Shown: positions 1 to 23,029 of the stretch, in pieces
Layout of the letters: every line of letters starts with the position of its first letter
Position numbering within the stretch: the first letter of the stretch is position 1
Source of the DNA: a virus
Taxonomy: Duplodnaviria > Heunggongvirae > Uroviricota > Caudoviricetes
DNA: 23,029 nucleotides
Reading direction: 5' to 3' (one strand)
Virus record (IMG/VR): IMGVR_UViG_2703718857_000002
Translations under genes and position numbers: made by a program
The notes under the pieces: model-generated
Databases searched by the model: none
The model's input: only the letters and a program-made list of their open reading frames with translations
Told to the model about the DNA's origin: nothing

Positions 1-549
1 TCAGCTAGCTGGAAACTTTTTATACAGAGTTGAGAGCCCTACTCCATACGTTTTTGATACGCTTTGTCGTGATTCACCGGTTGCCATCCGCTCCCCCATT
101 TCCCGCCATTGCTCATCCGTGAACTTAGGCCTGCGACCACCAACTCGCCATTTTGCCCTGGCTACGGCCAGCCCTGCTAAGGTACGTTCGCTATTAAGAT
201 CAGATTCATATTGTGCTGCGGAAAGGATGTTACGAAAGTTATAGCGGCCGCTGGCTGTTTTGAGATCCACGCCATCGGTAATACTGCGGAAGTTGATACC
301 CTTTTCCTGTAACTGCTGGAACATCAACAGCGCATGCAGAACGTTGCGGCCTATCCTGTCCAGCTTCCAGACCACCAGTTCATCCCCCGGCTGCATAGTG
401 GCGATCAGCCGTTTTAGAACCGGCCGATTCGATTTCCTCCCGCTGGCATGCTCTTCAAAAATTTTCTCACAACCCGCTGACTTGAGCGCCGTTAGTTGCA
501 ATTCAGTGTCCTGGTGGTTTGTTGATACTCGGGCATAACCGTAAATCAT
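1..549 (-). CDS. Serine recombinase of the DNA-invertase (Hin/Gin/Cin/Pin) family, 182 aa
   Basis: Complete ORF: ATG at 549..547, stop TGA at 3..1. N-terminus MIYGYARVSTNHQD carries the catalytic-serine motif of small serine recombinases; C-terminal HTH (SVSKTYGVGLSTLYKKF). AGGAGAA Shine-Dalgarno lies within the upstream palindrome. Family assignment is from established knowledge of the family. Confidence 0.9.
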   Translation of the reverse strand: MIYGYARVSTNHQDTELQLTALKSAGCEKIFEEHASGRKSNRPVLKRLIATMQPGDELVVWKLDRIGRNVLHALLMFQQLQEKGINFRSITDGVDLKTASGRYNFRNILSAAQYESDLNSERTLAGLAVARAKWRVGGRRPKFTDEQWREMGERMATGESRQSVSKTYGVGLSTLYKKFPAS

Positions 550-1798: not shown

Positions 1799-1816
1799 GA
1801 TCTGCCCTCCGATAAA

Positions 1817-2709: not shown

Positions 2710-2710
2710 T

Positions 2711-4840: not shown

Positions 4841-4862
4841 CTTTTCAATGAAGCAATTAAGA

Positions 4863-4891
4863 TTGACGACCCGCCCCTTCAGGGCTAACAT
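4863..4891 (+). promoter_or_regulatory. Candidate sigma70 promoter for the regulator/acyltransferase operon
   Basis: TTGACG (4863..4868), 17-bp spacer, TAACAT (4886..4891), about 30 bp upstream of the ATG at 4924. The spacer contains a small GCCC...GGGC inverted repeat. Read by eye, not scored. Confidence 0.35.
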
Positions 4892-4923
4892 CGCCTTACG
4901 TGTTTAAACGGTTAAGTAAGAGA

Positions 4924-5187
4924 ATGATTTTAATAAATAAATACACTCCTCCAACGCAGGAAGATTTAGCCAGACTGAAATCCGCAATAAACTACTCCGG
5001 AAACCAAATGGCAGGGCTCGCAGGTGTAGCCAGCGATAGCCAATGGCGGAAATACACTGGCGGAGAGAGCCCCAGGGTAATGTCAAGACACATACTGTTT
5101 TATATTGCAGCTCAGCTTGTTCTGTCTGATGAGCAACTTAACAATGTAATAAATAAAATGCGCGATATTGGCGCGGAGATAAAATAA
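4924..5187 (+). CDS. Small XRE-type helix-turn-helix protein, 87 aa; putative regulator of the downstream acyltransferase
   Basis: ATG at 4924 with AAGAG-type Shine-Dalgarno (the ORF track starts at GTG 4900). Segment ...GNQMAGLAGVASDSQWRKYTGGESPRVMSRHILFYIAAQL... fits an XRE-like HTH pattern. Its stop overlaps the acyltransferase ATG (TAATG). Confidence 0.55.
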   Translation: MILINKYTPPTQEDLARLKSAINYSGNQMAGLAGVASDSQWRKYTGGESPRVMSRHILFYIAAQLVLSDEQLNNVINKMRDIGAEIK

Positions 5188-6278
5188 TGCTTGGCCTAAT
5201 AAGGTTTTTTTTGGCATCGTGCGTCATTGCTTTTCACTTAACGGCTCGCATACCTGCACTTGGCAACTTTGCAGTGAATTGCTTCTATGTTATCAGTGGT
5301 TTTTTAATAACATACATTTTGCATGAAACATACAAGTTCAACTTCTCTATGTTTTGGAAAAATAGAATACTGAGGTTATTCCCGGCATATATATTTTTTC
5401 TCGTCATGGGCTTTCTTATTATAAAATTAATTCCATCCGCAAAGGAATTCCACTCAAACTGGACAGGCAATTTCTTACCTGGAGATTTATTAGGAAACCT
5501 CTTAATCTTCCCCTGGGCTTTCCTTTCTGATAATGCTGTAGCAAATCCATTCGGTGCCTTTTCATCCATTTATCACTTTGCTATTGATGGTAATAGATTC
5601 AGAATAGTCACATCATCATGGTCAGTGGGTGTTGAGATAACATGTTATTTTTTATTGTGGCTTTTCATAGCCCGAAATAAATTTACAGCCATTACGTCGA
5701 TTCTGCTTTCACTGCTTTATCATGCTTACGTATATGTAGTACACCATTCTTTTGATATGGCGTATTTCCCATTCCTTGCTGCAACACTTCCTTTTAGCAT
5801 GGGTTCTCTGGGTTATTTTGCCCATAGAAAGTTCAAAGCTATGTATCTTTCTCCACACAAAGCTTTTTTAATAACATTTATTTGCATCGGGATTTTTATT
5901 ACCAATTGGTATTTATATACAATTAATGCATTAGGTCAGTACAACATAATACTTTACTACACCAATAATGTAATAGCATTGTTTACAACCCTGGTATTAT
6001 TAAAAATAAAGACAAACATACATCTTGAGAAAATACTCAAGTGGTTTGGTGACCTGGCCTATCCAATTTTTCTTTGTCAATATTTTGGTGGATTTCTAGC
6101 ATGGCTTGCTATTGGTGGTGAAAATCGTGGCTTATCCATCTTTTTATTAGGCTACCCAATATCAATTGCACTTGGGATCGTTTGTGTAATATTAATAGAC
6201 AAGCCACTAATTAAAATTAGAGCAAAAATAAGGGCGGACGCTCAAAGCAAAAATAATCAGGAAAACTCTTCAAGGTAA
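5187..6278 (+). CDS. Acyltransferase family 3 (AT3) integral membrane protein, 363 aa; probable O-antigen/LPS O-acetyltransferase (Oac/OafA-like)
   Basis: N-terminal His in the first hydrophobic segment (...VIAFHLTARIPALG...) and the VNCFYVISGFLIT motif typical of AT3 acyltransferases; multiple hydrophobic segments throughout. Gene body is visibly AT-rich, roughly one-third G+C by eye. The LPS substrate is inferred from the prophage tail-fibre context. Confidence 0.8.
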   Translation: MLGLIRFFLASCVIAFHLTARIPALGNFAVNCFYVISGFLITYILHETYKFNFSMFWKNRILRLFPAYIFFLVMGFLIIKLIPSAKEFHSNWTGNFLPGDLLGNLLIFPWAFLSDNAVANPFGAFSSIYHFAIDGNRFRIVTSSWSVGVEITCYFLLWLFIARNKFTAITSILLSLLYHAYVYVVHHSFDMAYFPFLAATLPFSMGSLGYFAHRKFKAMYLSPHKAFLITFICIGIFITNWYLYTINALGQYNIILYYTNNVIALFTTLVLLKIKTNIHLEKILKWFGDLAYPIFLCQYFGGFLAWLAIGGENRGLSIFLLGYPISIALGIVCVILIDKPLIKIRAKIRADAQSKNNQENSSR

Positions 6279-7042
6279 ACTAAACCATTCGCTCCTTTTC
6301 CTGATGAATAGTTACCATTCCCCCCGGCACCACCTGAGCCGGGGAAACCGCCATCATCGCCAGAACTACCGAAGTGGCCATTGCCACCCGTTGATGAAAA
6401 TGCAGATCCTCCAGCCCCGCCAATAAAAGCATCAGAACCATAATACAGACCACCTTGAGATATTCCGCCAGTAATATTTAAAATGTTCCCGCCACTTCCG
6501 ATACCTCCAGCAGGAACTGTAGCCCCGCCACCACTCCCTCCAGTAGCTGAGATTAAACTCCCGAACCTTGTATCACCACCATTCCCACCTTTAGACGAGA
6601 CACCAGCAGCAACAGCACTGCCACCAGTACCTATCGTCACAGATATAGTTTCGTTATCAGAAATATTAAATAACCCTTCCGAAAATCCACCAGCACAACC
6701 TCCAGATGCGCCCACACTAACTGGAGCATTCTGGCCACCTCCCCCCGCTCCCCAAACTTTCACCCGCACTCTTTTCGTCCCTTTAGTTGGAGTGTAAGTC
6801 CCTGACTTAGTAAAGGTGACAATATTAAGCAGGCGACCGCCACCAATCGCTTTAAGAACCTGTGAATCATCATCAGGATCAAGCTCAAGCCCCGCGCCCT
6901 CAACAACGTTTACCAGCTCACGCTGAAAGGTATTCATCATCTCAGCATTAATTATTGTCGGTGAAATACCATTAGCGACATTACCATTAGTGTATTCACC
7001 ATTAGCATCAGCGGTGTCAGTTGTACTGCCAACTTTTCTCAT
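6257..7042 (-). CDS. Glycine-rich tail fibre protein, 261 aa
   Basis: ATG at 7042..7040 with AAGAAGG Shine-Dalgarno. Lies immediately downstream of the gp48-like gene, where Mu-type fibres sit. N-terminal region ...ISPTIINAEMMNTFQRELVNVVEGAGLELD... is followed by a GGxGG-rich low-complexity C-terminal half. Its 3' end overlaps the acyltransferase 3' end by 22 bp (convergent). Confidence 0.7.
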   Translation of the reverse strand: MRKVGSTTDTADANGEYTNGNVANGISPTIINAEMMNTFQRELVNVVEGAGLELDPDDDSQVLKAIGGGRLLNIVTFTKSGTYTPTKGTKRVRVKVWGAGGGGQNAPVSVGASGGCAGGFSEGLFNISDNETISVTIGTGGSAVAAGVSSKGGNGGDTRFGSLISATGGSGGGATVPAGGIGSGGNILNITGGISQGGLYYGSDAFIGGAGGSAFSSTGGNGHFGSSGDDGGFPGSGGAGGNGNYSSGKGANGLVYLEEFS

Positions 7043-7068
7043 ATAAACCTTCTTTTTAAATGTCTGAA

Positions 7069-7743
7069 TTAAACGTAACCAGAAGCGATATCAAATATTC
7101 TGGCAAACTCAGGCGTGACTTCGTAAACCCCCTCATCGTTAAAACCGAAATAGATATAGCCGAATTTGACCAGGGTGTATGAGGGGGCGAGGGCATTAAT
7201 CCGGCATTCAAGCTGACGATTACCCCAGGAACGTAATGGATCGCCACAATAACTCAGACCTGCACGGGCATAAGTTATCGTTGTGTCTTCCGCCTCTACC
7301 AGCCAGACAAATGGCCAGTCATCCCCATTTAGCCCGTCACCACATACCGATAAGCCAGCACGCGCCTGCCGGTATTCCTTAATCGAAATCGTATAACCCA
7401 TTGCTGCGGCAATACTGATGAAATAGCTCTTTGACTGCCCGCCGGTACTGATGAGTTTCGATACAATGGCAGACTGACGCTTCGCAATCGTATCCACTTC
7501 GCCAATCGAGCAATCATCAGGTAAGCCGAGTGTTTTTTCCCACTCGGTGAGCATAATCGTCGCAGTTTTTGGAAAGGCACCGCGCAGCAATGCAAGTGCG
7601 TCGTTATCACTACGCTGGAAACTGGCCGCAATGGCCCGCAGCACAGCAGCCTGAACAGCTTTTGGATCCCGTGTCCACGCTCGGCCGGTGGGGATAAGCG
7701 CCTGCAGTGCCTTCTGATAATCGTCTGTTGAGAAAAGGCTCAT
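7069..7743 (-). CDS. Baseplate protein, DUF2313 / Mu gp48-like (YmfQ-like), 224 aa
   Basis: N-terminus MSLFSTDDYQKALQALIPTGRAWTRDP...TEWEKTLGLPDDC matches the conserved start of Mu gp48-family proteins. ATGA overlap with the upstream J-like gene. Confidence 0.75.
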   Translation of the reverse strand: MSLFSTDDYQKALQALIPTGRAWTRDPKAVQAAVLRAIAASFQRSDNDALALLRGAFPKTATIMLTEWEKTLGLPDDCSIGEVDTIAKRQSAIVSKLISTGGQSKSYFISIAAAMGYTISIKEYRQARAGLSVCGDGLNGDDWPFVWLVEAEDTTITYARAGLSYCGDPLRSWGNRQLECRINALAPSYTLVKFGYIYFGFNDEGVYEVTPEFARIFDIASGYV

Positions 7744-8888
7744 GTGTAGTTCACCTCGCCACGAACAGCCAGCTCCCCAACTCCCGGCTCAATATTCGCA
7801 GAAGGCGACACAAGGATATAACCTGAAGTACCGGCAACATCCCCTATCGCGCGGTTGAGATCTGAAAGGTAAATTTTCCCTGTGCCGAGCGGGTTAGCAG
7901 ATTCAAACAATACCCCGTCAATCGCATCAGCAATGGCCGCAGTCGTTGCGCTGTCGGCATCAGATATCCCGCTTATTTCAAAATCGATAACGCGTTCGAT
8001 GGGAGAGCAGACATAGTTAAGGGAGGTAACCGGCGCAAGCGGATACATATAATCGGCAACTCTCCCCTGATCCCCGGTGGCTTTTACAGCCCCCCACTCT
8101 TCCAGTTGAGAGACACCGTCAGTTCCTGCAGGGAATCCATGATTGGTTTTATCATCGCCGTCGCACATGATGTAAATCACCACGGTACCCGGCCCCATCC
8201 CCCGGCGCCGTATCCATGCCCTGGTGATCCCCGACACGGATAAAGCCCAGCTTTTATAATCAGTGTCACTCCCGCCCTGCGGGGGATTCTGATACGCCAG
8301 CAGACCACGTAATCGGAAATCCTCTTCACTTTCAATGTTGGCGCCGCCGGTGGCGGGCTCAATCAGCGTAACCGAGCTGTCTATGCCGGGGGCATTAGCA
8401 TCCAGTGTAAGAATGGTGCCAGCATCGGCATTTCCGGAAGCGCCTCCTCCTGTCACATCGTCTGTGATATCCGGCAAAACCGCTGTTACAGCAACCGACG
8501 CACTGCCAGCAGTGTTTATCGTTATGGCATCATCGGTTGTGTACTGGTAACCATCATCACGGTTTAACACCGCCCCTTTTGACAGTGTTTTCCCCGGCGT
8601 TCCGGTAACGGTCGCCGCCGGAGAGCGTGCTGCCGTTGCGGCTTTTCGGTAAATCTGCTTTAGCGCCATCCATCCGGCAAGCCACTCATCGGTAGAGGTG
8701 AAAGGCGTGCTCTGACGGGCAATATAATCCAGGTAGGCGTAGTGCAGATGGGCCATGCCCGCATCCATATCAGCGAGCACCTTAAGGTTGCCAAACCGTA
8801 ACAGCGCGCCAACACTTTCAAGCTCTGCCTGCATAAACTGGCGATTCTCCTGCCGGAGCTCGCTCAGTGTTTTCCGCTTAAATGGCAT
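7740..8888 (-). CDS. Baseplate J-like protein (Mu gp47 / P2 gpJ family), 382 aa
   Basis: Size, position between the gp46-like and gp48-like genes, and overall sequence character fit the baseplate J family. Overlapping start/stop on both sides indicates a coupled operon. Confidence 0.75.
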   Translation of the reverse strand: MPFKRKTLSELRQENRQFMQAELESVGALLRFGNLKVLADMDAGMAHLHYAYLDYIARQSTPFTSTDEWLAGWMALKQIYRKAATAARSPAATVTGTPGKTLSKGAVLNRDDGYQYTTDDAITINTAGSASVAVTAVLPDITDDVTGGGASGNADAGTILTLDANAPGIDSSVTLIEPATGGANIESEEDFRLRGLLAYQNPPQGGSDTDYKSWALSVSGITRAWIRRRGMGPGTVVIYIMCDGDDKTNHGFPAGTDGVSQLEEWGAVKATGDQGRVADYMYPLAPVTSLNYVCSPIERVIDFEISGISDADSATTAAIADAIDGVLFESANPLGTGKIYLSDLNRAIGDVAGTSGYILVSPSANIEPGVGELAVRGEVNYT

Positions 8889-9327
8889 TATTCAGTTGCT
8901 CCCATAGCCAGAAGAATTTGAACTCCTGCCAGTCCCCCGCCGGCGGCAAATACCGGATGATGAGGTTCAGCCTATTCGGGAAAACAATCTCTGACTGAGC
9001 CTCTATCGCTGCTGCAATACCATCCGACTTCATCCAGGCCAGAGCCTCTTCGGCATAATCTTCAGCTCTCATCGCCACTTCGCGCGTCAGTTTTTCACGC
9101 CGCAGTAGCCACAGCCTTGAGCCAATATTCCGGTCGTTGTCCAGATCCCCCCACCAGCCGCGGCGGTCAGTTCCTTCATAATCATCATCAGCGCGCGCCA
9201 GTCCGTCAGTAAACAAACTGATAATTATGGCCGTGTGCATATCATTCTCAGATGTCAGTACGCCGTTACCGGTTTGCCAGTCAGCATGAATGGCATCCAC
9301 ATCCCAGAATGAGGAAATATCACTCAT
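8878..9327 (-). CDS. Baseplate protein, Mu gp46-like (GP46 family), 149 aa
   Basis: Size and position between the spike and J-like genes; 4-bp overlap with the spike gene. Family call by synteny plus pattern. Confidence 0.65.
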   Translation of the reverse strand: MSDISSFWDVDAIHADWQTGNGVLTSENDMHTAIIISLFTDGLARADDDYEGTDRRGWWGDLDNDRNIGSRLWLLRREKLTREVAMRAEDYAEEALAWMKSDGIAAAIEAQSEIVFPNRLNLIIRYLPPAGDWQEFKFFWLWEQLNNAI

Positions 9328-9905
9328 ACCTGACTCTCTGTTTTTTCGCTTATGATCGTGCTATCGCCGGACTGAACTTTTTTAACGTCATGGTCATGAT
9401 CGTTGTGAGCATCCCGCAGCGCTTTGAGCGTTGAATTGTTCGTCTCGCAGTTATCGATGATGTCACCCGTCACCAGGAGTTTGGGGGTAACCAGCTTTAC
9501 CTGTTCCGTTGCCGTCGCGGTGATGTTTCTGGCATTATTGATCTCTACATCTTTGCCTTTCGCATCAATGAAAATTCCCTCCTCGGTCAGATGAATATTC
9601 ATCCCCTGCTGGTTATAGACCACGGTTTCGCCTGGCTTAAGCCCGGTATACCGGAAGCTTTGATGGTTAGAGGCAATGACGACAGGACTGGAGCGGTCCC
9701 CGCCGAGAAAGGCAATAAGCACATCCGATCCCGCCGGTAACCCCGATGAAAAACCAAAATCAGAGAGCCGTGGGGCGCTGGCCACTTCCAGCGGAGTCTG
9801 GTACTGGATTTCCTGCACAACCCCGCTATCTTTCTGCGTGGTAATACGGCCAATGCCCAGCATGCCGGCGATGCGCGTGGCCGATTTCTTTAAATTTTGA
9901 TTCAT
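9324..9905 (-). CDS. Baseplate central spike / assembly protein V (Mu gp45 / P2 gpV-like), 193 aa
   Basis: Size, synteny, and a C-terminal His-rich motif HNDHDHD (nt 9387..9407) of the kind that coordinates metal at the tip of contractile-tail spikes. Confidence 0.7.
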   Translation of the reverse strand: MNQNLKKSATRIAGMLGIGRITTQKDSGVVQEIQYQTPLEVASAPRLSDFGFSSGLPAGSDVLIAFLGGDRSSPVVIASNHQSFRYTGLKPGETVVYNQQGMNIHLTEEGIFIDAKGKDVEINNARNITATATEQVKLVTPKLLVTGDIIDNCETNNSTLKALRDAHNDHDHDVKKVQSGDSTIISEKTESQV

Positions 9906-10777
9906 TGGTTTAGTCCGGGTATTTGCTGGTAGAAAGCATAAGGCTGGACAGCGAAAGCCTCCGGGGGCATCAGATAAAGGCGCGCATGGGTGCCGTCACT
10001 GTCTCTGATATAAGTCACCTCTGCGATAAGCAATTCGGTGTCAGGCAGCTGCAGACTCGGGATGTTGACCGGGATAAGCGTATTCGGCTCCCATAATTTC
10101 CCGGATTTATCGCGCCAGGAATCAATCGTCACCGTTAACTGACGGGAACGGCCGTATCGGCGGTTCATCTCCCAGTCAATCGCTCGCTGAGCCTGTTGTG
10201 AAGCCATCAGTGTACTTTCAACAATAATGATCCGTTTTCGGTAACGCATACTGGCCGCCTCAGGATCGCGGGCCGTCGCCAGCGTCACCGAATCATAAGC
10301 CGTATCTGGCGAGAATCCTGCAATCGGCGAAATGCTCATCGATACGCCGACGTAATCAGAAAAGCGGTCAGCCATCGAACGGCGGTAATAAGCCTGTTCG
10401 ATATTTACCCCTTCTGCGATACCGCTGGCCGCGCGCTTTGTCCCCACCCGGGTCAGAAATAAGTTACCGTCAGGCTGATCGTAATAAAGCAATGCCGACC
10501 AGCGGGAGACACGATCAAGTATTTCCTGTGGCGATTCCCCCCAGTTCAGGGAAAATTGCGGAACTTTCACCAGATCATCAACGTCTGTACTTACGCCAAT
10601 GTTGTAATGGGATGCGAGGCGGGAGGCTATATCAAGCGCATTACTGTTATTGATGACGTTATTTGGCCATTCAGCAGAGCAATCAACGAGATCTGCGCAC
10701 TTACTGCGGCCTGAGGCTCTGACTTCATGGCGCGAACGGGAAATAGCAGGCGACCAGTCATCAACATACCCCGTCAC
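9902..10777 (-). pseudogene. 5'-truncated baseplate hub gene (Mu gp44 / P2 gpD family), 291 codons retained
   Basis: Frame opens at a GTG at 10777 that overlaps the portal stop codon in a different frame. C-terminal region ...LLIAEVTYIRDSDGTHARLYLMPPEAF resembles the conserved end of gpD-family proteins. Full-length homologues are about 380 aa (from memory), implying loss of roughly 90 N-terminal residues. Confidence 0.5.
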
Positions 10778-11931
10778 TACCAGGTACCGGATGAGAAATT
10801 ACGCAATACTGCAGACTCGAAAACCTCAAAGTTGCTGTAAGGGCGGGCAGCGTTGACCGTTGTTATTCTCTCCCCTGGATAAAGGATCGGCATACGGGCG
10901 CCATTCTGCAGCGTCAAACGGCGATCATTATGAAACTCTGCACGACCATCCTGGTATGCTCCCAATCCCTCTTCGAAGTTTTCCCCCAGCGCGGACTGGA
11001 TCATTTCGGGATCGTATGGAGACTCAATATACGCGGCGAAGATAGCATTCAGAATTGCTGCTTCCAGCTCGCTCTGGTCGTACTTCACCAGCATCTTCAG
11101 ACGTTGCACTACTGGAGTCAGAATGCCATTCCCCCGATGCTGAGCTCCACGCTCATGGTCAAAGTCGTGCACAACGTGCGGGCGCCCCCATGCGGTTTCG
11201 CGCGGGATTCGTCGCCATGTCATTGTTTTGGCGCCACTCCACCAGTCACCGATATGTGCTTCACGTATGTGATAAGCCACAGGTGCGCCGTCAGCATCAA
11301 TTTCAACGCCGCCGCGGATATTCGGCATATCAAAATTCTGCTGCGGGTTACTGAGTCTGTCGGGATCAACAACCTGCACCGTCGTGGCATAACGCCCCTT
11401 ACCTGGTCCAAGGCGATCGGTGCGATACTGAAGCACCATCAGGGCATCGCCATCAATCAGCTTGTGGCGAAAGGCCAGACGCAACATTTGTGGAACGGTT
11501 AGCTTGCGCTCAACGTCACAATAACGGCCTGTGTCGTATGCCCAGGTTCTCCAGTGGGAAGCGAGTGCTTTTCCGTACTCTTCCGCCCATACTGCGTCAA
11601 AACTTTTATTACCTGTCATCATCCGTAATACACGATAGTCAGGCTTCATGATCGGACGGAAATTGGCGCCGACCGCATTATCAAGCAGGCGAGTTATGGC
11701 ACCATTGGCCCATCCATCATTTCGGACCAGATCCCGCGCACGGGAAACTATACGGTCACGGTAGATATTAATTTCGTTATCCGGTGACCATAGTGCGGGC
11801 TGCCAGTTCGCCAGTTGATCGCTGAAGGAATCCGCGGCGTCATATGGCACCCGGCTACCGCCCGTCAACATGCTGGGTTTTGGTGCCTGATAAGGTCTCC
11901 CGTCAGGACCAAGGATTTGCACTTTATTCAT
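10777..11931 (-). pseudogene. 3'-truncated portal gene (lambda gpB family), 384 codons retained
   Basis: N-terminus MNKVQILGPDGRPY, the VERKLT motif and ...AILNAIFAAYIES... parallel lambda gpB; the ORF stops at ...NFEVFESAVLRNFSSGTW, where lambda-family portals continue for about 140 more residues (from memory). Start overlaps the gpW-like stop by 1 nt. Confidence 0.65.
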
Positions 11932-12194
11932 CAGAATCTGAACCTCACTGGCTTCCGTGGCCGGGCGACAATTCCCAGTTGCGCCTGCAGCAACTGAATC
12001 AGCGCCAGCAGGTCGGCGAGAGAGCTTTGCTGATAGGAGACAGAGCGCGTCCCATCACCCTGCGTATAGGAGAATGAGACGCCACGGCTGCCGGTAGTCA
12101 GGTCGATATAAGCCTGCTGCGCTTTCTGCAGAGCGTCTCTGAGCTGCTCATCAGTCATCCCACCAGCAAGTAAGCTCGTGTTTCGGTTAAACAT
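11931..12194 (-). CDS. Head-tail joining protein, lambda gpW-like, 87 aa
   Basis: Small ORF between terminase large subunit and portal, the lambda Nu1-A-W-B order. Translation ...LRDALQKAQQAYIDLTTGSRGVSFSYTQGDGTRSVSY... resembles gpW. Confidence 0.7.
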   Translation of the reverse strand: MFNRNTSLLAGGMTDEQLRDALQKAQQAYIDLTTGSRGVSFSYTQGDGTRSVSYQQSSLADLLALIQLLQAQLGIVARPRKPVRFRF

Positions 12195-12202
12195 GGTTTT
12201 CC

Positions 12203-14335
12203 TTATTGCGGCAGGAGTTTAGAAATGTTCTTACGCTTAACAGGAGCCATAGCCTCATCCACGATGGCACCCGGTAATTCGTAATTGATTTTTTCTTCTG
12301 GCTCGGCTGGCGCCGGCAGGAACTTATCGGGATCGGCCTGAAGGTTAGCGGCCCGAACATTGAGTTTTAATCCCATATGTTTCAGCCCACACAACGCGGC
12401 ATAGCTGTAAACGAGGCAGTCGAGTGCTTCGTTCGCCCGTCCGGGGATAGGCTCCCAGACACTGAATCGCTGACCGGCCACCACTTTATAAACCAGTCGC
12501 TCGGCCAGCAGCTGGTTGAAATATCCGAGGTCACGATCATCCGGGAAGTGCATATAGCCCGCACCGGCAGTACCTAAAGCTGGCGGTTCAAGATGCAGAC
12601 GACCACGGACAACATCTTTCGCAGAGTTCACGCCAAGTATAATTGGCCTGAAGCTGGCTTTACTTTTCGATGTCGGTCGCTTGGTTGGCCAGACGGGGTT
12701 GCGTTTCCCACCCTGCGCAGATTCGCCCTTGATAGCCCAGACGCGGCGCCCAAGGCGATCTTTGCAGAACTCATAAACCTTTTGCGTGTGGTGACCGCCG
12801 GAGTCCATACATGCAGCCAGAATATTCAGCCCTCGCCCGTCGCCGCGTCGCCATATCTGTTTCAGGTACGCATCGAGGCGCTTCCAGGGTTCCTCAGTCT
12901 CCAGATCGCCATAAATGACGTCATGCGCAACTGACCACGATTCCTCGTCCCGCCCCCAGCCAGTGATCGTGATTTCGAATCGGTCATCCTGGGTATCGAC
13001 GCCCGCAGTTAACAATGCCACGCCATCAGGAACGACGGCCGGGAAGACTTCACGGCGCGCCAGCAGGACATCAACCGGGAGCTGTTTCCCGTGGTTAGGC
13101 CGGTGCGGCAACCCCATCTGGGTGTTCCACCAGGCCTGTTCCTTATCCGGATCCCCTTTCGCATCGAGGTATTTCTTTGCAATGTCCGATGGCTTATCTT
13201 TTTGCCAGGGACTGAAGAGTTTTGACGCCTGGTACCCGGCGTGGTGATTATCCAGCGCCTCGGCCCCGCAGTCCGGGCAAATCGCCCGGTATACGGCATG
13301 CCGTTCCGACTCTGACCAGCGCCAGACGGCATCAACACTGCCCTCGTCTCCTTCATGCCATTTCTGGTCGTATTCCATTAATGGTGAATGGCGGGAACCA
13401 CAACATTCAAACGGTTTGGTCTGATGCCAGCGGATTGTCTGTAATGCCCGCAGACGCTCACCCTCTGACCAGCCAGCACCACAACATTCACAATGGATCA
13501 TGGCCGCTTTGGTCAGGTGCTTATCACCTTCTTTTGGCCATTGAACATGTTTGAAGAAATCAAGGAACTGTCGGTGCCCGCAATGGGGGCAAACTACAGA
13601 GGCCCGCCGCTGATCTGAATCTTCGTAACTGTCAGCAATCCGGCTTTCATCTTCGACCGTCGGCGAACAAGCCCGCACGGACAGCCAGTTAAGGCCAAAT
13701 GTGGCGGTTCGCTCTTCCGCCAGAGCGATGGGATCGCCCTCACGGGTAATCGGATATTTATCCACCTCATCTGCCAGCAGAACACGGATCGGACGGCGCG
13801 CAAGGTTATCTGGACTACCGGCGCCGGCCAGCGCCAGAAATCCGCCGGTGAAAGCTTTATACAGAATGGTTTCTTTTGAACTCTTCTGCTTTGAGTCACC
13901 TATGATGTTACGCAGAACTGGCGTTACCCTAACCAGCGGGCTGATGCGTTCTTTGGAAAACTGCTCAGCGGCCTCTTCCTTCGGCTGCAGGAGCAAAATC
14001 GGACATGGGTCGAGGTGCGCAAAATAACCAAACAGGTTTTCCAGCAGCGCGGTTTTCATTAACTGGGTACAGCACATCACGGTGATAATGTGGACGCCCG
14101 ATTCCGTCGCGGCCAGCATAGGACCGCGGGCAATTTCAACCGTTGATGTTTCCCAGTTCCCGGAGGTACTGCCAGCTTCTTTCGCCAGCTTCCGGTAGTC
14201 ATCGGCCCATTGCGGGACGCTGATCCGCGGCGGCGGTGTCCACCCTTTCCGGACACTCAGTTGAAGACGCTCAATCTTCCGCTGGGTTAAACTCTGGTTC
14301 TCCGAGGACTGAGATATGTTTGTGGACATGTTCAA
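12203..14335 (-). CDS. Terminase large subunit (lambda GpA family), 710 aa
   Basis: Long ORF with cysteine-rich zinc-finger-like cluster (CPHCGH...CECCGAGW...CPDCG) and overall resemblance to GpA-type terminases. Immediately downstream of and overlapping the Nu1-like gene. Confidence 0.85.
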   Translation of the reverse strand: MNMSTNISQSSENQSLTQRKIERLQLSVRKGWTPPPRISVPQWADDYRKLAKEAGSTSGNWETSTVEIARGPMLAATESGVHIITVMCCTQLMKTALLENLFGYFAHLDPCPILLLQPKEEAAEQFSKERISPLVRVTPVLRNIIGDSKQKSSKETILYKAFTGGFLALAGAGSPDNLARRPIRVLLADEVDKYPITREGDPIALAEERTATFGLNWLSVRACSPTVEDESRIADSYEDSDQRRASVVCPHCGHRQFLDFFKHVQWPKEGDKHLTKAAMIHCECCGAGWSEGERLRALQTIRWHQTKPFECCGSRHSPLMEYDQKWHEGDEGSVDAVWRWSESERHAVYRAICPDCGAEALDNHHAGYQASKLFSPWQKDKPSDIAKKYLDAKGDPDKEQAWWNTQMGLPHRPNHGKQLPVDVLLARREVFPAVVPDGVALLTAGVDTQDDRFEITITGWGRDEESWSVAHDVIYGDLETEEPWKRLDAYLKQIWRRGDGRGLNILAACMDSGGHHTQKVYEFCKDRLGRRVWAIKGESAQGGKRNPVWPTKRPTSKSKASFRPIILGVNSAKDVVRGRLHLEPPALGTAGAGYMHFPDDRDLGYFNQLLAERLVYKVVAGQRFSVWEPIPGRANEALDCLVYSYAALCGLKHMGLKLNVRAANLQADPDKFLPAPAEPEEKINYELPGAIVDEAMAPVKRKNISKLLPQ

Positions 14336-14834
14336 TCAGCACCTCTGTCATCCTGTCCGCCGGCACATTCAGATCGGCGGCTATCAGCGGTGCCACGCGT
14401 GAAGGCCAGTTCAGCCAGGCATCACGCTGCTGGCGAAAGGCGTTAAACAGAACCTCCTCGGCGATGGCCAATTCAATTGTCTGGCCGCTGTCTTTTTCAT
14501 ACTGGAGCTTTGCCTGCAGGGCCATGTAATTTTCACGGATCCGCGCGGCCTCTTCCCTGGAAAGGACTGCACCTTCTGTAAACATTATCTGGCGAACGGT
14601 TTCATCAATTTCATCGTCGCCATCATTCCGGGGTGCTGGGGCTTTTTTCTTCTTCGCGTTTGATGCCCGCGGATCTTTTCCATCACGGTTTTTCTTCAGC
14701 GCGGCATCGCTCGCCTCAACATCAATCAGGTCGCCATCCATGACGATAAACCGACCAGCCTTGATCCATCGGCCAATAGTCTTGCGATCGACGCCTGAAT
14801 GTTGCGCGTACTGACTCTGGTTCATCGTGGTCAT
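14271..14834 (-). CDS. Terminase small subunit (lambda Nu1-like), 187 aa
   Basis: N-terminal winged-HTH region MNQSQYAQHSGVDRKTIGRWIKAGRF resembles Nu1. Overlaps the 5' end of the large-subunit gene by 65 nt, as in lambda. Start could be ATG 14834 or the ATG 3 codons downstream. Confidence 0.8.
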   Translation of the reverse strand: MTTMNQSQYAQHSGVDRKTIGRWIKAGRFIVMDGDLIDVEASDAALKKNRDGKDPRASNAKKKKAPAPRNDGDDEIDETVRQIMFTEGAVLSREEAARIRENYMALQAKLQYEKDSGQTIELAIAEEVLFNAFRQQRDAWLNWPSRVAPLIAADLNVPADRMTEVLIEHVHKHISVLGEPEFNPAED

Positions 14835-14981
14835 GGGACATCACCTGGGACATTTTTGGGGTGGGACATTTACCTGGGACATTTTTTCAATGTCCCACAC
14901 GAATGTCCCACTGGAATAAATGGAATAATCCGTGCTGGCTCTGGCGTGGCTGGCGATCCCTTGGGGTGGGACATGGGACAC
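14834..14981. repeat. Array of TGGGACA(T/C) repeats (5 direct TGGGACAT plus 1 TGGGACAC, 2 inverted copies) immediately upstream of the terminase small-subunit gene; candidate cosB-like terminase-binding region
   Basis: TGGGACAT at 14834, 14846, 14862, 14875 and 14967; TGGGACAC at 14974; inverted ATGTCCCA at 14890 and 14903. Location matches where lambda-type phages carry Nu1 binding sites next to cos. Confidence 0.5.
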
Positions 14982-15071
14982 AAAATAAAAGTTTGTAGCT
15001 AGGAAAACACTGCGGCGCGCAATGCCCGTGCCTTACAAAAGGCTCAGGAAGGACCCAAAACCCCTGGGGGG

Positions 15072-15713
15072 CTATCTGGCCGAGCTGATCGCCTCAGCAA
15101 TCGCCTGGTGCAGCGCTGAGGGTAACAATGCGTTGGCCATGGTGTTTGCCCTGTCCATATAGCCGAGCGTTGGTTTGACTGGAAGCGAGTCTCCAAACCG
15201 AATGAGCAATTTTGGTGCAGGTTGCTTAATCTTGTCTCTGCGCGTGCCGTTCGGAGAACGTTTTGCCCGTTTCTTCCCTTTTTTGGTTTTCGGCTTTTTT
15301 CTCTGCCACACGGCATTCACGCCACCAACGTCACCAATAAATACGTTTGGCTTTGCTTTGAGCTGAGAGAGCTTATTACGCGGCAGGTTGCCGTATTTAT
15401 TAAGCTTTATGTCTTTCGGGTTAAGCAAAGCACTACCATTAAGCTTGTGCTCTCCGCCGAACTCGAAGGGTTCAAGGTAACCAGCAGCAGTATCACGAAC
15501 AAACACCTTCGCACGAAGGCTGTTTTTCCTGGCACCAACTGACCCAACCGATTTAACTGTAAAAGGTGTTGGATTATCCAGATTCCGCTCAAATGCTGTT
15601 TTTTGGGCCGCTTCTATCTGGCGAACCACTTTAGTCATAGCCTGGGCAGTCGCAAACGGTATTTGCTTCTGCAGCTGTCTTAACTGACTGGAAAGGTCCT
15701 TAAGCGTTGCCAT
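15072..15713 (-). CDS. Hypothetical basic protein, 213 aa
   Basis: ATG at 15713 with AGGTGG Shine-Dalgarno. Contains a strongly basic tract QRKKPKTKKGKKRAKRSPNGTRRDK. Located between the lysis cassette and cos; no family recognised. Confidence 0.55.
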   Translation of the reverse strand: MATLKDLSSQLRQLQKQIPFATAQAMTKVVRQIEAAQKTAFERNLDNPTPFTVKSVGSVGARKNSLRAKVFVRDTAAGYLEPFEFGGEHKLNGSALLNPKDIKLNKYGNLPRNKLSQLKAKPNVFIGDVGGVNAVWQRKKPKTKKGKKRAKRSPNGTRRDKIKQPAPKLLIRFGDSLPVKPTLGYMDRANTMANALLPSALHQAIAEAISSAR

Positions 15714-15762
15714 ATCATTGACCACCTAGTTACAGTAATTAAGATCAGTTTGCTCATAAAGT

Positions 15763-15791
15763 TGACAATAAAAAACCGCCCGTAGGCGGTT
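15763..15791 (-). terminator. Rho-independent terminator after the 134-aa moron
   Basis: Minus-strand hairpin AACCGCC-TACG-GGCGGTT followed by TTTTTATTG; overlaps the stop codon of the 134-aa gene. Confidence 0.7.
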
Positions 15792-16194
15792 AGTCGAACA
15801 TTTTATCAAGTTGCTTAGCTAGAGCTCGGTTAAACAGCTCCTTCGAAACTGTCATCAGCGTGCCCATACTGGCATCTTTGAATCCGGTTTTTAATGTTGC
15901 CCAAACCTCTTTGTTACGGAGAGCATCCAAGAAGTCATGCCCCATCGCGGTCAATCGCAAGGGCATTACAGCCCAGTGAGTCATTCCGTCTAAAGACTGA
16001 ATAGCACCAAAGCCGGGCTCCCCATCACTCCTGATAATCAGCCCTCTATCCTCAAGCAAACGCATATGAAACACAAATGTGTCAGTTTCACAATTGAACC
16101 CTAAATCCTTTAATCGAATAATATCGGTATCAGGTGAATCCGATGCCTCGAAAGCCTCGAGCAAACCTTTAAGGTATTCTTGATCTATTTGCAT
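15790..16194 (-). CDS. Hypothetical protein, 134 aa (moron between Rz and cos)
   Basis: ATG at 16194 with GGAGGGG Shine-Dalgarno and its own terminator. Translation MQIDQEYLKGLLEAFEASDSPDTDIIRLKDLGF...; no family recognised with confidence. Confidence 0.65.
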   Translation of the reverse strand: MQIDQEYLKGLLEAFEASDSPDTDIIRLKDLGFNCETDTFVFHMRLLEDRGLIIRSDGEPGFGAIQSLDGMTHWAVMPLRLTAMGHDFLDALRNKEVWATLKTGFKDASMGTLMTVSKELFNRALAKQLDKMFD

Positions 16195-16226
16195 AACCCC
16201 TCCGTATGTAAAAGGTTAATTTAACA

Positions 16227-16697
16227 TCAATTTAAGCACTGCTCTTTGATGTATTCCTGCAAATATCCAACCTGTTTCGTCACTGTGACGATTCGCTCTC
16301 TGAGGGTGAAATAATCCCGTTCAGCGGAGTCAGTAAGTCGGGGGCCGGTAACATCGCCCAGGCCGCCGGTGCTGGTCGTTCCGTTCGCGGGACAGTTTGC
16401 GTTGAGCTGCAGCCGCTTACGGCCAGCAATGACATCGCTATGCAGACGCTCAATGGTTTCTTTCGCATCAGCCAGTTCTCCGGTGTATTTGGCATCCAGT
16501 GCAGCGACATCACGCTGGCGGGTCTGCATGTCTTTAATGGTGGCGGTCGCCAGGAGGAGTTTCTCAGTGGCCTTATCGCGCTGGTCTCTGTAAGTGATGG
16601 CGTTGTCGCGGTAGTGGTTCACGAAGAAAGCCAGTGCGCCGATTAACGCCAGCACCAGCAACTGCAGCCAGTAACGCTTAACCAGTGCGCTAATCAT
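16227..16697 (-). CDS. Rz-type i-spanin, 156 aa
   Basis: N-terminal transmembrane segment ([17 protein letters not shown]) followed by a charged coiled-coil-like region; ATGA overlap with the lysozyme gene; contains the embedded Rz1 frame. Confidence 0.8.
16280..16468 (-). CDS. Rz1-type o-spanin lipoprotein, 62 aa, embedded in Rz in an alternative frame
   Basis: [22 protein letters not shown]... has a lipoprotein signal with lipobox cysteine, followed by a proline-rich mature region (...[19 protein letters not shown]). Start taken at the internal ATG at 16468. Confidence 0.75.
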
Positions 16698-17134
16698 GAC
16701 AGGAACAGAGCTCGCTCTGCCTCCCGCCGACGTGTCAGCCCATTCAGCACCTTCCCACCAGCTTTATTCCAGCGCAGGAACTCATCGGCTGCACCAGCGT
16801 AATCTCCGGCGTTGAGTTTTCGCAGGAGAGTCGATGTCGACAATGACCGCGCACCGAGGTTATACGTGAACGACACCAGGGCATCGAATTGCCCCTGAGT
16901 CAGGCCAACTTTAACCAGTCGTGACACGTCACTTTCGTAACTGACCATTCCTGTCTTCAGCAGGCGTTCTGCCGTTTCCTGCTTAATTGTCATCCCGGCA
17001 CGGATTGGTTTCCCGTCGACGGGCTGAGTCCAGCCATAACCGATCGTCCAAACGCCGACGCTGTCCTGATAGGCAGTGAGCTTGCAACCTTCGAACTCTT
17101 TGATCAGGGCAATGCCTTTATCACTGGTTTGCAT
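16694..17134 (-). CDS. Phage lysozyme (T4-type, GH24; P22 gp19-like), 146 aa
   Basis: Translation [34 protein letters not shown]... ending ...[12 protein letters not shown] closely parallels P22 lysozyme, including the catalytic Glu in EFEG. Confidence 0.9.
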
Positions 17135-17438
17135 TCTTCATCCCCGTCAAGCGTTCCCAGAAATAGGTCAGAGCCACTGAACCCATCGCCCCGCTAATGC
17201 CGGACGTGACAAGGATCATGTGAAAACTCAACCCACTCTCCACGCTTATCAACCCGCCAATCAAACCGGTAAAGCCGGAGACAGCGATCTGTGCCAGCGC
17301 GTTTATCCAGCTCCATGTCGCTTTATTCTGCTTTACGTCGATCAGGTAGCGAACTAAACCGCCCCAGCATGCAATGCCGAGCAGGACTAACCAGGACAGG
17401 CCTACAATTTTGTGGTCGTCATTCATACGCTTTGCCAT
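17121..17438 (-). CDS. Holin (lambda S-like class I), 105 aa
   Basis: ATG at 17438 with GGAGGTG Shine-Dalgarno; the ORF-track start at 17630 lacks an RBS and crosses the terminators. Three hydrophobic segments and a charged C-terminus; N-terminus MAKRM offers two in-frame starts separated by Lys-Arg. Confidence 0.8.
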   Translation of the reverse strand: MAKRMNDDHKIVGLSWLVLLGIACWGGLVRYLIDVKQNKATWSWINALAQIAVSGFTGLIGGLISVESGLSFHMILVTSGISGAMGSVALTYFWERLTGMKNANQ

Positions 17439-17510
17439 ATCACCTCCGAAGGAACGGGGTGCTGTTTGTGTAGAGTGGAAGGATGCCAGGAAACAACGAC
17501 CGGACATCGC

Positions 17511-17537
17511 AAATAAAAAAGCCAGCGACAGGCTGGC
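17511..17537 (-). terminator. Rho-independent terminator (proximal) in the Q-like/holin intergenic region
   Basis: Minus-strand hairpin GCCAGC-CTGTC-GCTGGC followed by TTTTTTATTTG. Confidence 0.55.
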
Positions 17538-17610
17538 AATGTGAGGGTAAGGCAATGTCGGCTCTCTGGCCGAAGGGTCCCAGGTAGTGGGTTCTGTGTG
17601 CTGCGTACCG

Positions 17611-17641
17611 CAAATAAAAAAGCCCCGCACGATGGCGAGGC
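17611..17641 (-). terminator. Rho-independent terminator (distal) in the Q-like/holin intergenic region
   Basis: Minus-strand hairpin GCCTCGC-CATCGT-GCGGGGC (one G-U pair) followed by TTTTTTATTTG; shares the flanking AAATAAAAAAGCC motif with the proximal terminator. Confidence 0.5.
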
Positions 17642-17707
17642 TCTTAATTCTTTGTCGACCTACGAAGCTATGGCGACGATATCAGATTTACATGAAATAT
17701 ATGCGTT

Positions 17708-18397
17708 TCAATCCAGTTTTGCAAGACTTGAGTCTAAATTTGTCGCCTTTTGTTGTGAACGTGATCGCGTAACCTGCAATAAAGCCCCGCTATCCAGTCG
17801 CAGGAAGATGCTGCGCATCTCAACCCAGCGGTCAGTAAAGGTCTCTGACCAGTTTTTTGGCGTTACGCCAACCAGCGACGCCAGCGCCTGATATTCGTAC
17901 GTCTCACGCCCTGCCAGCTCTGCTTTCACGTCCTGAGCCGCGAGCCAGACAAGCTTCTTCAGGCGCTCCATCGTTTTGCCGGCCACCTTCTTCGCGCCGA
18001 GCTGCTCCCGGAACTCTGCCCACGCCCATTGAGTGATTTCCACCTGATAGCACCAGCGCACGTTCTCGCTATAGTTCCATAGCAGCCACGCTTTCTGGTG
18101 TTCTTCGAGTGACATCAGTGCGCGGCGCCACGATGCGCTGGAGTATTCAACCGGCTGCACCAGGGGAATATGCGAACCCTTGGTATGCGACTGCTTGCCC
18201 GGTATTGGCGGGTTATCCAGCGTAATCATTTCCCCGGTCACTTCATCCAGCACTCGAGGCTTTTTACGTTTAAACGTTCCCGTATCGAACTGCGCGTTTT
18301 CAAGCCACGCCATCAACTGCCCTTTCGTCGCACCACTTAAATCGGCGGTGGCCACCATCAACTGCTGGCGCACGTATTCGAGAAATTGAGTATTCAT
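17708..18397 (-). CDS. Putative late-gene regulator (Q-like antiterminator by position), 229 aa
   Basis: Sits between NinG and the holin, where lambdoid Q lies, and is followed by terminators. Start taken at ATG 18397 (MNTQFLEYV...); the ORF track extends to 18490. No Q-specific motif such as a zinc finger is recognised, so the call rests on synteny. Confidence 0.4.
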   Translation of the reverse strand: MNTQFLEYVRQQLMVATADLSGATKGQLMAWLENAQFDTGTFKRKKPRVLDEVTGEMITLDNPPIPGKQSHTKGSHIPLVQPVEYSSASWRRALMSLEEHQKAWLLWNYSENVRWCYQVEITQWAWAEFREQLGAKKVAGKTMERLKKLVWLAAQDVKAELAGRETYEYQALASLVGVTPKNWSETFTDRWVEMRSIFLRLDSGALLQVTRSRSQQKATNLDSSLAKLD

Positions 18398-19139: not shown

Positions 19140-19141
19140 AA

Positions 19142-20709: not shown

Positions 20710-20842
20710 GAATTAGCGATGTTTTATTACGCCGCTATTTGTTTCTGCTGACAAAGCTCCTGTATCAAACCCGAAACAGCAGATCGCTTATCTGGCACTC
20801 AAATACTGGGCGCGCCTGTATTGCCCTGCAGTTGTTCTTGGT

Positions 20843-21319
20843 GTGTACACCCCTGATGAGATTGAACAGCGCACAGAAAAAGAGATCAACCCAACGCCGC
20901 AACGCGTTAGCCTGGCTGATATCTCAGGTGACACCGTCACAACCACGCAAAGCGCACAGGAATCGTCGGTAAATGTCGACTCTCTTGCCGATGATTTCCG
21001 CGAACGCATCGAATCTGCTCAGGACGTGGATAGCGCCAAATCGCTGCGTGCCGACATTGAAACGGCGAAAGCTACGCTGGGATCCGCACTATTCACCGAG
21101 CTGAAAAACAAAGCCGTAAAGCGTTATTACCTAGTGGATGCACGCAACAAGGTTGAGGAGGCTATTAAATCCCTGCCCCAGCCCGACGAGCCGCATGCAG
21201 CCGAACGGTTCGCTGAAGCCGAGCGCATGCTTGCATCTTCAAAGCGTCACTTAGGCGATGAACTGCACGATCAATTCAGCATCACCCTGGCGGATATGAA
21301 ACCGGAATACGTGGCCTGA
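20843..21319 (+). CDS. Hypothetical acidic protein, 158 aa from GTG; possibly the 3' remnant of a longer gene
   Basis: The frame is open from 20717 with no ATG before the GTG at 20843, and the upstream in-frame translation (...IAYLALKYWARLYCPAVVLG...) looks protein-like. No family recognised. Confidence 0.4.
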   Translation: MYTPDEIEQRTEKEINPTPQRVSLADISGDTVTTTQSAQESSVNVDSLADDFRERIESAQDVDSAKSLRADIETAKATLGSALFTELKNKAVKRYYLVDARNKVEEAIKSLPQPDEPHAAERFAEAERMLASSKRHLGDELHDQFSITLADMKPEYVA

Positions 21320-21641: not shown

Positions 21642-21839
21642 ATGGATGATATTTTGGTAACGTCAGACCTGACCAGTCGCTACAAAATTTCACGCAAAAC
21701 CCTTTGGTCATGGCAAAGTGCAGACACAATGCCTCGGGGCTTCGTATGCCCGTTCCCACCCCCTGACTGGCCCGGCAACCCTAACCGCTGGCGCTCTGAG
21801 TCAATCAAAGAGTGGGAGGATAAAAAGAAGATAAATTAA
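21642..21839 (+). CDS. AlpA/Xis-like small DNA-binding protein, 65 aa
   Basis: [25 protein letters not shown]...[11 protein letters not shown] fits the AlpA/excisionase-type HTH pattern. ATG at 21642 with GGAGAGAG Shine-Dalgarno (the ORF track starts at TTG 21597). 3' end overlaps the integrase 3' end (convergent). Confidence 0.55.
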
Positions 21840-23029
21840 CTGAAGGGCTCTCCGATGATCTCTTCAAGATGGCTCTGCCAAACGCGGAGCCAGTGTTTCT
21901 GATCATCGATATAGTCATGAAGGTTGTAATGCGCCATAACCCCCACCATCTGATGCCCGAGCAGCTTTTCAATTACGTGCGGCGGGCAACCTAACTCAGA
22001 GAGATTTGTGGCTATCGTCCGCCTCATATCATGAAGCGACCACTCTGCCATACCTGTTCCATTCCAAATAGAACGGGCGTAATTGGATGCCACAGGTGAA
22101 TGAACGGGCGAATCTTTGATCCCGCCATCAATTTTACGTTGTGAAGTCACCAGGTGATTGGTGTTTATTTTCTTGAGGTGATTTCTGACCAGGTTAACGG
22201 CGGCGTCTGAGAGTCCCCTTCTAATATGTACCCGAGTTTTATAACTGCCCGCAGGCACGACCCACTCATTATCATCCAATCGAAACCATGATCTCTCACT
22301 AAGTCGAATCTCAGCCGTACGGCATCCGGTAAGCATAATAAATTTCACCAGGAAAACGGACTCTATCGACATATGGCTTTTCAACCACTGATAGATTTTG
22401 CGCAGATCGTCATCGTCCATCCTGCGAGTTCTCTTTTTAGGCTTTTGCCCGACATCAGATGGCAGTAATCCCTCGAGTGGGTTTGAGGCGATCACACTTC
22501 TGTTAACGCAGAACCTAAACGCCCGTTTGCACAGCGAAAGCATGTAATGAGCCATCACCCTGCTTTCTATAGAATCGAAGACGTTGATCCAGTGCATTTT
22601 CGCTGTGTTATCGACTTTGACATTCTTCATCGGTTCGGCGATATGTTTCTCAAACACCTGGCGATAGTAATCGACTTTAACTAGCCCGTTAGCGATACAG
22701 TGCCTTTCAATCCAGTAATTGAACGCTTCGGCAACGGACATCGCTTCCTGTCGGGTCTGCTTATCCAGCTTCACCTGCTCTCGCGGATCCAGTCCCTCAG
22801 TTAACCAGTTTCTGAATTGTTGGCGACGCTCTCTTGCCTGGGTGATACTCATTGCAGGATAATCACCAACATTGAGTTTTACCGCTTTACCGGCCCAGCG
22901 ATACCGATAGAAAAATGATATTTTTCCGGCCTGGCTGATTCTGGCGTTGAGCCCGTGCGAATCAGAAATAATCTCGATATCATCTCTTTTCTTGCCGAGC
23001 GCCTTCCTGAGCTTTGTGTCGGTGATCAT
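21836..23029 (-). CDS. int: Tyrosine integrase, P4-type, 397 aa; start coincides with the window edge
   Basis: N-terminal arm-binding region (...[32 protein letters not shown]...) and C-terminal catalytic region (...[11 protein letters not shown]...[18 protein letters not shown] with Arg, His-x-x-Arg and Tyr). The ATG sits at the last 3 nt of the window, so a slightly longer N-terminus cannot be excluded. Confidence 0.9.

Follow-up and report, generated by a model that had tools for sequence, protein, structure and literature searches.

Cryptic prophages and the element in the window

The conversion of prophages into cryptic elements has been reviewed (PMC6379469), and the portal-hub scar described here is ordinary prophage decay, a textbook case of this known phenomenon. 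Among the closest described systems, e14 of E. coli K-12, which lies at icd and has been grouped with the SfV/SfI phage type (PMC3636060), carries a portal gene fragment, beeE (157 aa), adjoining a baseplate fragment, the jayE pseudogene; YmfQ, tail-fibre genes and a Pin-type invertase (pinE) follow, and the head and tail-tube genes are all missing. A remnant in E. coli HS (NC_009800.1, 2.067-2.081 Mb) belongs to the same phage family as the element described here (99.3-99.7% identity) and is likewise defective because its morphogenesis operon has lost an internal stretch, joined at short microhomology, but this deletion is 7,813 bp long, the remnant retains full-length portal and hub genes, it occupies another locus, and it breaks off past the terminase region. 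Two isolated phages, Citrobacter phage phiNP (OR565852.1), a viable temperate myovirus (PMC6456863), and Serratia phage BZS1, have the genes from portal to hub in the order of this family and share approximately 71% DNA identity with both flanks of the junction described below; unlike the element in the window, both are complete and functional, infect hosts of other genera and differ in their early regions. Finally, E. coli 23CRST046 (NZ_AP045816.1) carries an apparently intact 43-kb prophage (hereafter L002) between yciI and kch.

The window (the whole stretch of DNA analysed, 23,029 nucleotides) finds its best counterpart in this last strain, which was the one genome covering 87% of it in a whole-window search. 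L002 and the window agree in their integrase, invertase, late and baseplate genes and are 98.99-99.92% identical over the retained segments. L002 differs in keeping a 10,775-bp head and tail interval and a 9,224-bp early region that the window lacks, and in carrying a different tail-spike cassette (window positions 1201-4446 are unmatched). The initial annotation had called the element e14-like and had pointed to SfV-like mosaics as its intact relatives. The first description serves well as an analogy, since the beeE'-jayE' junction of e14 is of the same kind, but not as a statement of kinship: e14 was rejected as a true relative because BeeE gives no significant alignment with the window's portal protein (E = 0.5), and only YmfQ is homologous, namely to the gp48-like protein of the window (33% identity, E = 6e-34). 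Moreover, the e14 deletion ends in gp47/J while that of the window ends in gp44, and e14 resides at icd while the window's relatives are at yciI-kch. The likeness to e14 reflects convergent decay and not orthology. The second description was not borne out. An SfV-like ancestry of the head module was considered and rejected, given the absence of similarity to BeeE and a sensitive DNA search among phage records that returned phiNP, BZS1 and phiAP1 but not SfV; in the relatives, which are phiNP-like, the head is of lambda type and the tail of Mu type.

The portal-hub junction and the DNA missing from it

When the window is aligned with L002 by blastn, three ungapped segments are obtained: window 4446-10785 corresponds to L002 7537-13876 (98.99% identity), window 10784-20764 to L002 24650-34630 (99.92%), and window 20762-23029 to L002 43852-46119 (99.91%). 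At the first joint exactly 10,775 bp of L002 (13877-24651) are missing, and the window passes at 10784/10785 from hub-gene DNA on the left to portal-gene DNA on the right. The initial annotation had placed a junction between truncated portal and hub ORFs at 10690-10790, a range into which this breakpoint falls, and the comparison of synteny with intact related prophages that it had proposed bears the junction out, L002 being collinear on both sides. The two parental sequences have only GT in common at this position (2 nt of microhomology in a three-way display), and no insertion sequence, mobile element or longer repeat was seen in the junction sequence. In a megablast search of 9000-12500 against 5,426 complete E. 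coli genomes, the two halves matched separately, split at the same position. The features of the window are collected in Table 1.

Table 1. Coordinates of the junctions, gene remnants and retained genes in the window, with the basis of each assignment.
Feature	Coordinates	Strand	Basis
Deletion junction (portal-hub)	10784..10785	.	blastn of window vs L002 and L001 (HS remnant); three-way sequence display
3'-truncated lambda-family portal gene	10777..11931	-	Pfam PF05136; alignment with L002, HS, lambda gpB
5'-truncated Mu gp44 / P2 gpD-type baseplate hub gene	9902..10785	-	Pfam; alignment; frame analysis
Baseplate and fibre genes, intact	6257..9905	-	Pfam; no stops/indels vs L002
gp45-like spike	9324-9905	-	Pfam
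gp46	8878-9327	-	Pfam
gp47/J	7740-8888	-	Pfam
gp48/YmfQ	7069-7743	-	Pfam
Glycine-rich fibre protein	6257-7042	-	Pfam
Packaging genes, intact	11931..14834	-	Pfam; no stops/indels vs L002
gpW	11931-12194	-	Pfam
Large terminase, gpA type	12203-14329	-	Pfam
Putative small terminase	14271-14834	-	Pfam
Late regulator and lysis genes, retained	16227..18397	-	Pfam; identical to L002
Q antiterminator	17708-18397	-	Pfam
Holin	17121-17426	-	Pfam
Lysozyme	16694-17134	-	Pfam
Rz	16227-16697	-	Pfam
Tyrosine integrase, intact, right end of element	21836..23029	-	Pfam; 100% identical to L003
Serine recombinase (invertase/resolvase type), intact, left end	1..549	-	Pfam PF00239 and PF02796
Second deletion junction, microhomology GTA	20762..20764	.	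blastn; sequence display; L002 annotation
recT 3' remnant	20765..21319	+	mapping to L002 recT, 43297-44409

All genes around the junction lie on the minus strand, which reads ...AAT TTC TCA TCC GGT ACC TGG TAG TGA CGG GGT ATG... across it. The ORF list gives the portal remnant as a frame of 384 aa with an ATG start and the hub remnant as a frame of 291 aa with a GTG start (9902..10777); the portal stop (TAG, 10777-10779) and the hub-frame GTG (10775-10777) overlap by one base in different frames, an arrangement that had been described correctly from the outset. The junction is a fusion of DNA and not a translational fusion. Past the last retained codon, the portal frame runs into hub DNA in the wrong frame and reads TGG TAG (Trp, stop), and in the hub frame the GTG is the first canonical start, a stop lying seven codons ahead of it (frame analysis). 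Reading of the sequence revealed no recognisable Shine-Dalgarno element before the hub GTG, and any translation of the hub remnant would have to rely on reinitiation where the TAG and GTG overlap.

On the portal side, the ORF matches Phage_portal_2 (PF05136) with 286.4 bits (cut-off 32.9) but only over positions 3-319 of the 354-position profile, while the intact portal of L002, with 544 aa, covers 3-354. Aligned with the portals of L002, HS and lambda gpB, the window's protein is identical to its cognates up to Thr383 and then ends in Trp-stop; 382 native codons are kept, Thr383 is preserved through the junction, and 161 of the 544 codons are gone. Identity to lambda gpB is 32%. Cognate portals measure 544 aa in L002, HS and the intact prophage L010, 547 aa in phiNP and 533 aa in lambda (gpB), and the intact cognate aligns over residues 32-534 with the solved lambda portal (PDB 8K38, E = 2.8e-64; also 8VHX). 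A complete portal domain with its C-terminal region would take about 530-545 aa, of which 383 of 544 residues are left here. The genes for gpW and TerL are present upstream, and the S49 protease gene that follows the portal gene in L002, L010 and phiNP is deleted.

On the hub side, Gp44-like_2nd (PF22255, 70.6 bits) and GpP_4th (PF21929, 58.9 bits; cut-off 27 for each) are recognised in the ORF, and the N-terminal domain GpP-like_1st (PF21683) is reduced to positions 61-85 of 85, with 20.1 bits, below the 27-bit cut-off. In the intact L002 hub, a protein of 361 aa, that domain spans 2-85 of 85 and scores 89 bits. Native hub sequence in the window starts at nucleotide 203 of 1086, so that 67 codons and one base are lost from the DNA; the first canonical in-frame start is the GTG of Val71, which opens the 291-aa ORF, lacks the native ribosome-binding site and leaves 70 N-terminal codons out of the frame. 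The remnant is 30% identical to Mu gp44. Hubs of 361 aa are found in L002, HS, L010 and MuSo2 (3CDD), of 359 aa in phiNP and of 379 aa in Mu (gp44), and the intact cognate aligns over approximately residues 9-347 with the structures of MuSo2 (3CDD, E = 3e-51) and Mu gp44 (1WRU, E = 6e-42). Genes gp45 to gp48 follow in order, and gp43, encoding the DNA-circularisation protein, is deleted.

These alignments to the lambda gpB and Mu gp44 families, which the initial annotation had suggested for mapping the breakpoint, put it at residue 383 in the 544-residue portal and at residues 68-71 in the 361-residue hub, in accord with the extent of the Pfam matches. The alignments agree with the annotation's reading of a portal frame that stops at 10777 after some 384 codons, short for the lambda family (533-547 aa). 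Its two estimates of size need adjustment: the portal is indeed truncated, relative to a cognate of 544 and not roughly 530 residues, and the hub has indeed lost its N terminus, by 67 fully deleted codons (70 absent from the ORF) and not about 90.

In L002 the 10,775-bp interval holds the last 488 nt of the portal gene, 13 whole genes and the first 202 nt of the hub gene. According to the L002 annotation, the 13 genes encode, in order, an S49 peptidase (the prohead protease), a 196-aa scaffold-like product, a head decoration protein, the major capsid protein, a 125-aa product, a head-tail joining protein, a 181-aa product, a DUF2635 protein, tail sheath, tail tube, a tail assembly protein, a 617-aa tape-measure-like protein and a DNA-circularisation protein of the gp43 type. 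The fifth to eighth of these are four head-completion, head-tail or tail-completion genes, and the tail assembly protein is a tail chaperone. Gene order from portal to hub is the same in L010 and in phiNP, and neither the ORF list nor Pfam reveals head or tail-tube genes elsewhere in the window. Everything from protease and scaffold to tape measure had been said to be missing between the two ORFs, and this whole series, present in order in intact relatives, is absent here.

A second joint, at the right of the window, had escaped the initial annotation, which spoke of a single large internal deletion; the 10,775-bp scar stands, and a further 9,224 bp of L002 are missing, beginning shortly after dinI and ending midway through recT. 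The replication genes O/P, the cI/cro-type regulators together with the promoters of the latter, recE and the 5' half of recT were lost in this second deletion. Against L002, none of the other retained genes shows a stop or an indel, and most match it exactly, in keeping with the proposal that the lysis, packaging and baseplate/fibre modules are intact. The element is a defective prophage, probably incapable of induction, replication or the building of heads and tails. It should be non-inducible and non-productive, because early promoters, replication genes, capsid and tail tube are absent. The cryptic-element architecture proposed at first, with its presumed loss of function, agrees with both deletions and the modules they removed. 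The scar is of use chiefly to annotators, who should mark the two ORFs as pseudogene fragments and the whole element as defective.

Origin and age of the scar

The best explanation of the portal-hub scar, to which we give a probability of about 0.88, is a one-step internal deletion of 10,775 bp in the prophage of a temperate phage. The ancestor would have been a temperate phage of approximately 43 kb, its head of lambda type, its contractile tail of Mu type and its early region lambdoid, integrated, as its closest relatives are, between yciI and kch of E. coli; the window's own site is taken from L003 only, the nearest relative. One illegitimate recombination event at 2 nt of microhomology would have removed the interval that starts at codon 383 of the portal and ends at codon 68 of the hub, taking 13 complete genes and truncating two more, and the resulting scar would yield at most two fragments, both presumably without function. 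The other deletion, of 9,224 bp, would have taken away the immunity and replication region. Short-homology illegitimate recombination or end joining would be consistent with junctions that have 2-5 nt of homology and lack a mobile element, and the short-homology process of E. coli resembles microhomology-mediated end joining (PMC11372144; PMC3375238).

The same scar could have been reached in two steps, if an intermediate like the HS remnant had lost 7,813 bp (from gp43 to the decoration gene) and then another 2,959 bp that erased the first junction. The arithmetic permits this route: the HS deletion is wholly nested inside the interval deleted from the window, and the gap between the window and the HS remnant (L001) is 2,959 bp (window 4503-10785 corresponds to L001 15504-21786, and window 10784-15069 to L001 24746-29031). 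However, the HS element, whose truncated integrase is a different one, resides elsewhere in the chromosome, beside tRNA-Ser and mtfA, while the nearest relatives of the window, L003 (99.99-100% identity) and L002, are both at yciI-kch; on the right flank, moreover, the window is no closer to HS (99.74%) than to L002 (99.92%), and two events are invoked where one is enough. Because the HS element lies elsewhere and the window's closest relatives are at yciI-kch, the more parsimonious history is a single step that started from an ancestor like L002, and we regard the two-step route as improbable.

Far less credence is due to an assembly artefact in which two contigs of an intact prophage were wrongly joined. 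Its appeal lies in the rarity of the junction, which occurs in none of the 5,426 complete E. coli genomes; the exact 34-nt junction pattern likewise has no match among GTDB species-representative genomes, a result that speaks to rarity only. An exact-protein look-up nevertheless placed the 384-aa fragment on one contig of the Logan assembly of run SRR15116329 (SRR15116329_160), which is 14,956 bp long, spans the junction and is 100% identical to window 1371-16326, although this run could derive from the same isolate as the window. A 2-nt overlap, furthermore, cannot make a false join in a k-mer assembler, and sibling elements carry comparable clean deletions.

Lambdoid phages are mosaic, and the slight difference between the flanks in identity to L002 (98.99% on the left, 99.92% on the right) might suggest a module boundary made by recombination between phages, or intact genes of an unusual phage, without any loss of DNA, but such readings are hardly tenable when both ORFs are cut within conserved Pfam domains, every full-length homologue is longer (533-547 aa for the portal and 359-379 aa for the hub, where homologues of the sizes seen here would have spoken for intact genes) and the window has no head or tail-tube genes elsewhere.

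As to age, the one-step deletion appears to be very recent, since the remaining genes are still undamaged. L003, at yciI-kch, differs from the window by 1 mismatch in 8,242 bp and by none in another 2,268 bp, yet carries a different deletion, of 26.4 kb; being near-identical but differently deleted, the two elements suggest that the decay events were recent and independent. A further element, L004, has a deletion of 31.3 kb. The portal-hub scar is therefore a recent, lineage-private event, one of several independent deletions among related elements, and in this family large deletions precede point-mutational decay, repeatedly and independently.

The recT breakpoint

One position in recT, ...GGGTA/TCAAACCCGAAAC... 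(the slash marks the break), forms the right end of the window's second deletion, of the L004 deletion and of an allele type represented by L011 and L012. The last of these, shared by 12 complete genomes, is bordered on the left by a different prophage remnant; the left-hand DNA differs among the three deletions and is joined in each case at ...TA/TCAAACCCGAAAC. In the recT region of L002, the site at this hotspot is GGGTATCAAACCC. Three independent ends within a 5-nt window of an element of approximately 40 kb would not be expected by chance. The dinucleotide TA is found in the microhomology at 5 of 6 junctions examined, while it makes up 4.3% of dinucleotides; the portal-hub junction, with GT, does not clearly show the pattern.

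It is conceivable, though we consider it doubtful, that deletions in this prophage family are non-random, made by a process of breakage or recombination that prefers certain sites, and that the portal-hub scar is the product of such directed "grounding" and not of neutral decay. Candidates for the site preference may include a strong topoisomerase or gyrase site, a nuclease site or a phage-encoded function. If the recurrence is real, the recT breakpoint would offer the study of illegitimate recombination in E. coli a hotspot that is both natural and tractable.

Three familiar sources of defined ends were considered and set aside. Deletion by the integrase was rejected because the att core, ATTTAAGAAAGTGTTCT, is unlike any of the breakpoints. 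An endpoint defined by Chi and RecBCD was rejected as well, since no Chi occurs within approximately 280 bp of a breakpoint or, in the case of the recT hotspot, within 1.1 kb. At the recT site, TATCAAACC presumably bears a loose resemblance to a gix/hix half-site; a crossover there by an invertase of the Pin/Gin type was rejected, the break being at the outer edge of the putative site and not at its centre. Among motifs around nine parental breakpoints, chosen post hoc and assessed by permutation, there was marginal enrichment of GGTTA (5/9, p ~0.016) and of CCGGTAC (3/9, p ~0.02).

Large deletions in the window and its relatives

The initial annotation described one large deletion in this defective prophage, but a second went unmentioned there: relative to L002, the intact prophage at yciI-kch of E. 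coli 23CRST046, a further 9,224 bp are absent from the window at a junction with the microhomology GTA (20762-20764). The lost segment held the replication genes, the cI/cro-type regulators and recE, together with recT's 5′ half, and the junction was found in none of the 5,426 complete E. coli genomes searched. At least four other decay states of the same prophage family are known. Deletions of 7.8, 26.4, and 31.3 kb have occurred, respectively, in the E. coli HS remnant L001 (NC_009800.1, 2.067-2.081 Mb), in L003, the window's nearest relative, and in the further deleted element L004, while the L011-type remnant, an allele whose deletion ends in recT and which has another prophage remnant on its left, represents another such state. 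L003 differs from the window by a single base in 8.2 kb, yet its deletion is not the same; because of this, the sequences indicate that near-identical prophage copies undergo large deletions both repeatedly and quickly.

A recurrent breakpoint in recT

Three deletions that arose independently, each with a different partner on its left, share a breakpoint in recT, all of them joining where ...TA meets TCAAACCCGAAAC. The microhomologies there are GTA in the window, GGGTA in L004, and TATC in the L011 type, whose junction is present in 12 complete genomes. The site seems to be a hotspot of illegitimate recombination. The att core was rejected as the source of the breakpoint, its sequence being unrelated, and a search for a Chi site found none nearby.

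Six junctions were compared (window 10784-85 and 20762-64, L001 ~22408, L003 ~12240, L004 ~15072, and L011 ~12001). The dinucleotide TA, which accounts for just 4.3% of the prophage's dinucleotides, lies within or ends the microhomology in five of them, often as GTA or GGTA, and CCGGTAC/GTACCGG occurs no more than 12 nt from three of nine parental breakpoints; both patterns were picked out post hoc, with a permutation p of only ~0.02.

Gene content of the remnant

Coordinates of features in the window and of the recT breakpoint in related elements
Feature	Element	Position	Strand	Remark
Serine invertase/resolvase gene	window	1-549		far left end of element
Region noted together with the invertase/resolvase gene	window	626-1201
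Tail-spike/distal cassette	window	1201-4446		ORFs 1906-2709 and 2711-4891
95-aa ORF	window	4900-5187	+	upstream of acyltransferase
Acyl_transf_3 family acyltransferase	window	5187-6278	+	between fibre and tail-spike genes, on opposite strand
Two genes without assigned role	window	15072-16194		between lysis and terminase modules
recT remnant	window	20765-21319
recT breakpoint	window	20762-20770
recT breakpoint	L002	43850-43856
recT breakpoint	L004	15070-15075
recT breakpoint	L011 and L012	12001-12003

The tail-spike cassette is 99.99% identical to that of L003, in whose annotation the large ORF encodes a TolB family protein. L002 has no counterpart save a 287-bp stretch at 79% identity. At the corresponding place, E. 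coli HS and other relatives have genes for sialate O-acetylesterase, SGNH or CotH. The cassette appears to be a receptor-binding module that can be swapped; Pfam searches of its two listed ORFs gave no match. In the relatives, the stretch from the serine invertase/resolvase gene to the fibre genes contains short fragments annotated as pseudogenes (isochorismatase and others).

The acyltransferase is likely an O-antigen-modifying "moron" gene, which could be one reason for keeping the prophage remnant. The 95-aa ORF had no Pfam match, nor did the 213-217-aa ORF between the lysis and terminase modules; the latter and its neighbor, encoding a DUF2513 protein, are each identical to L002.
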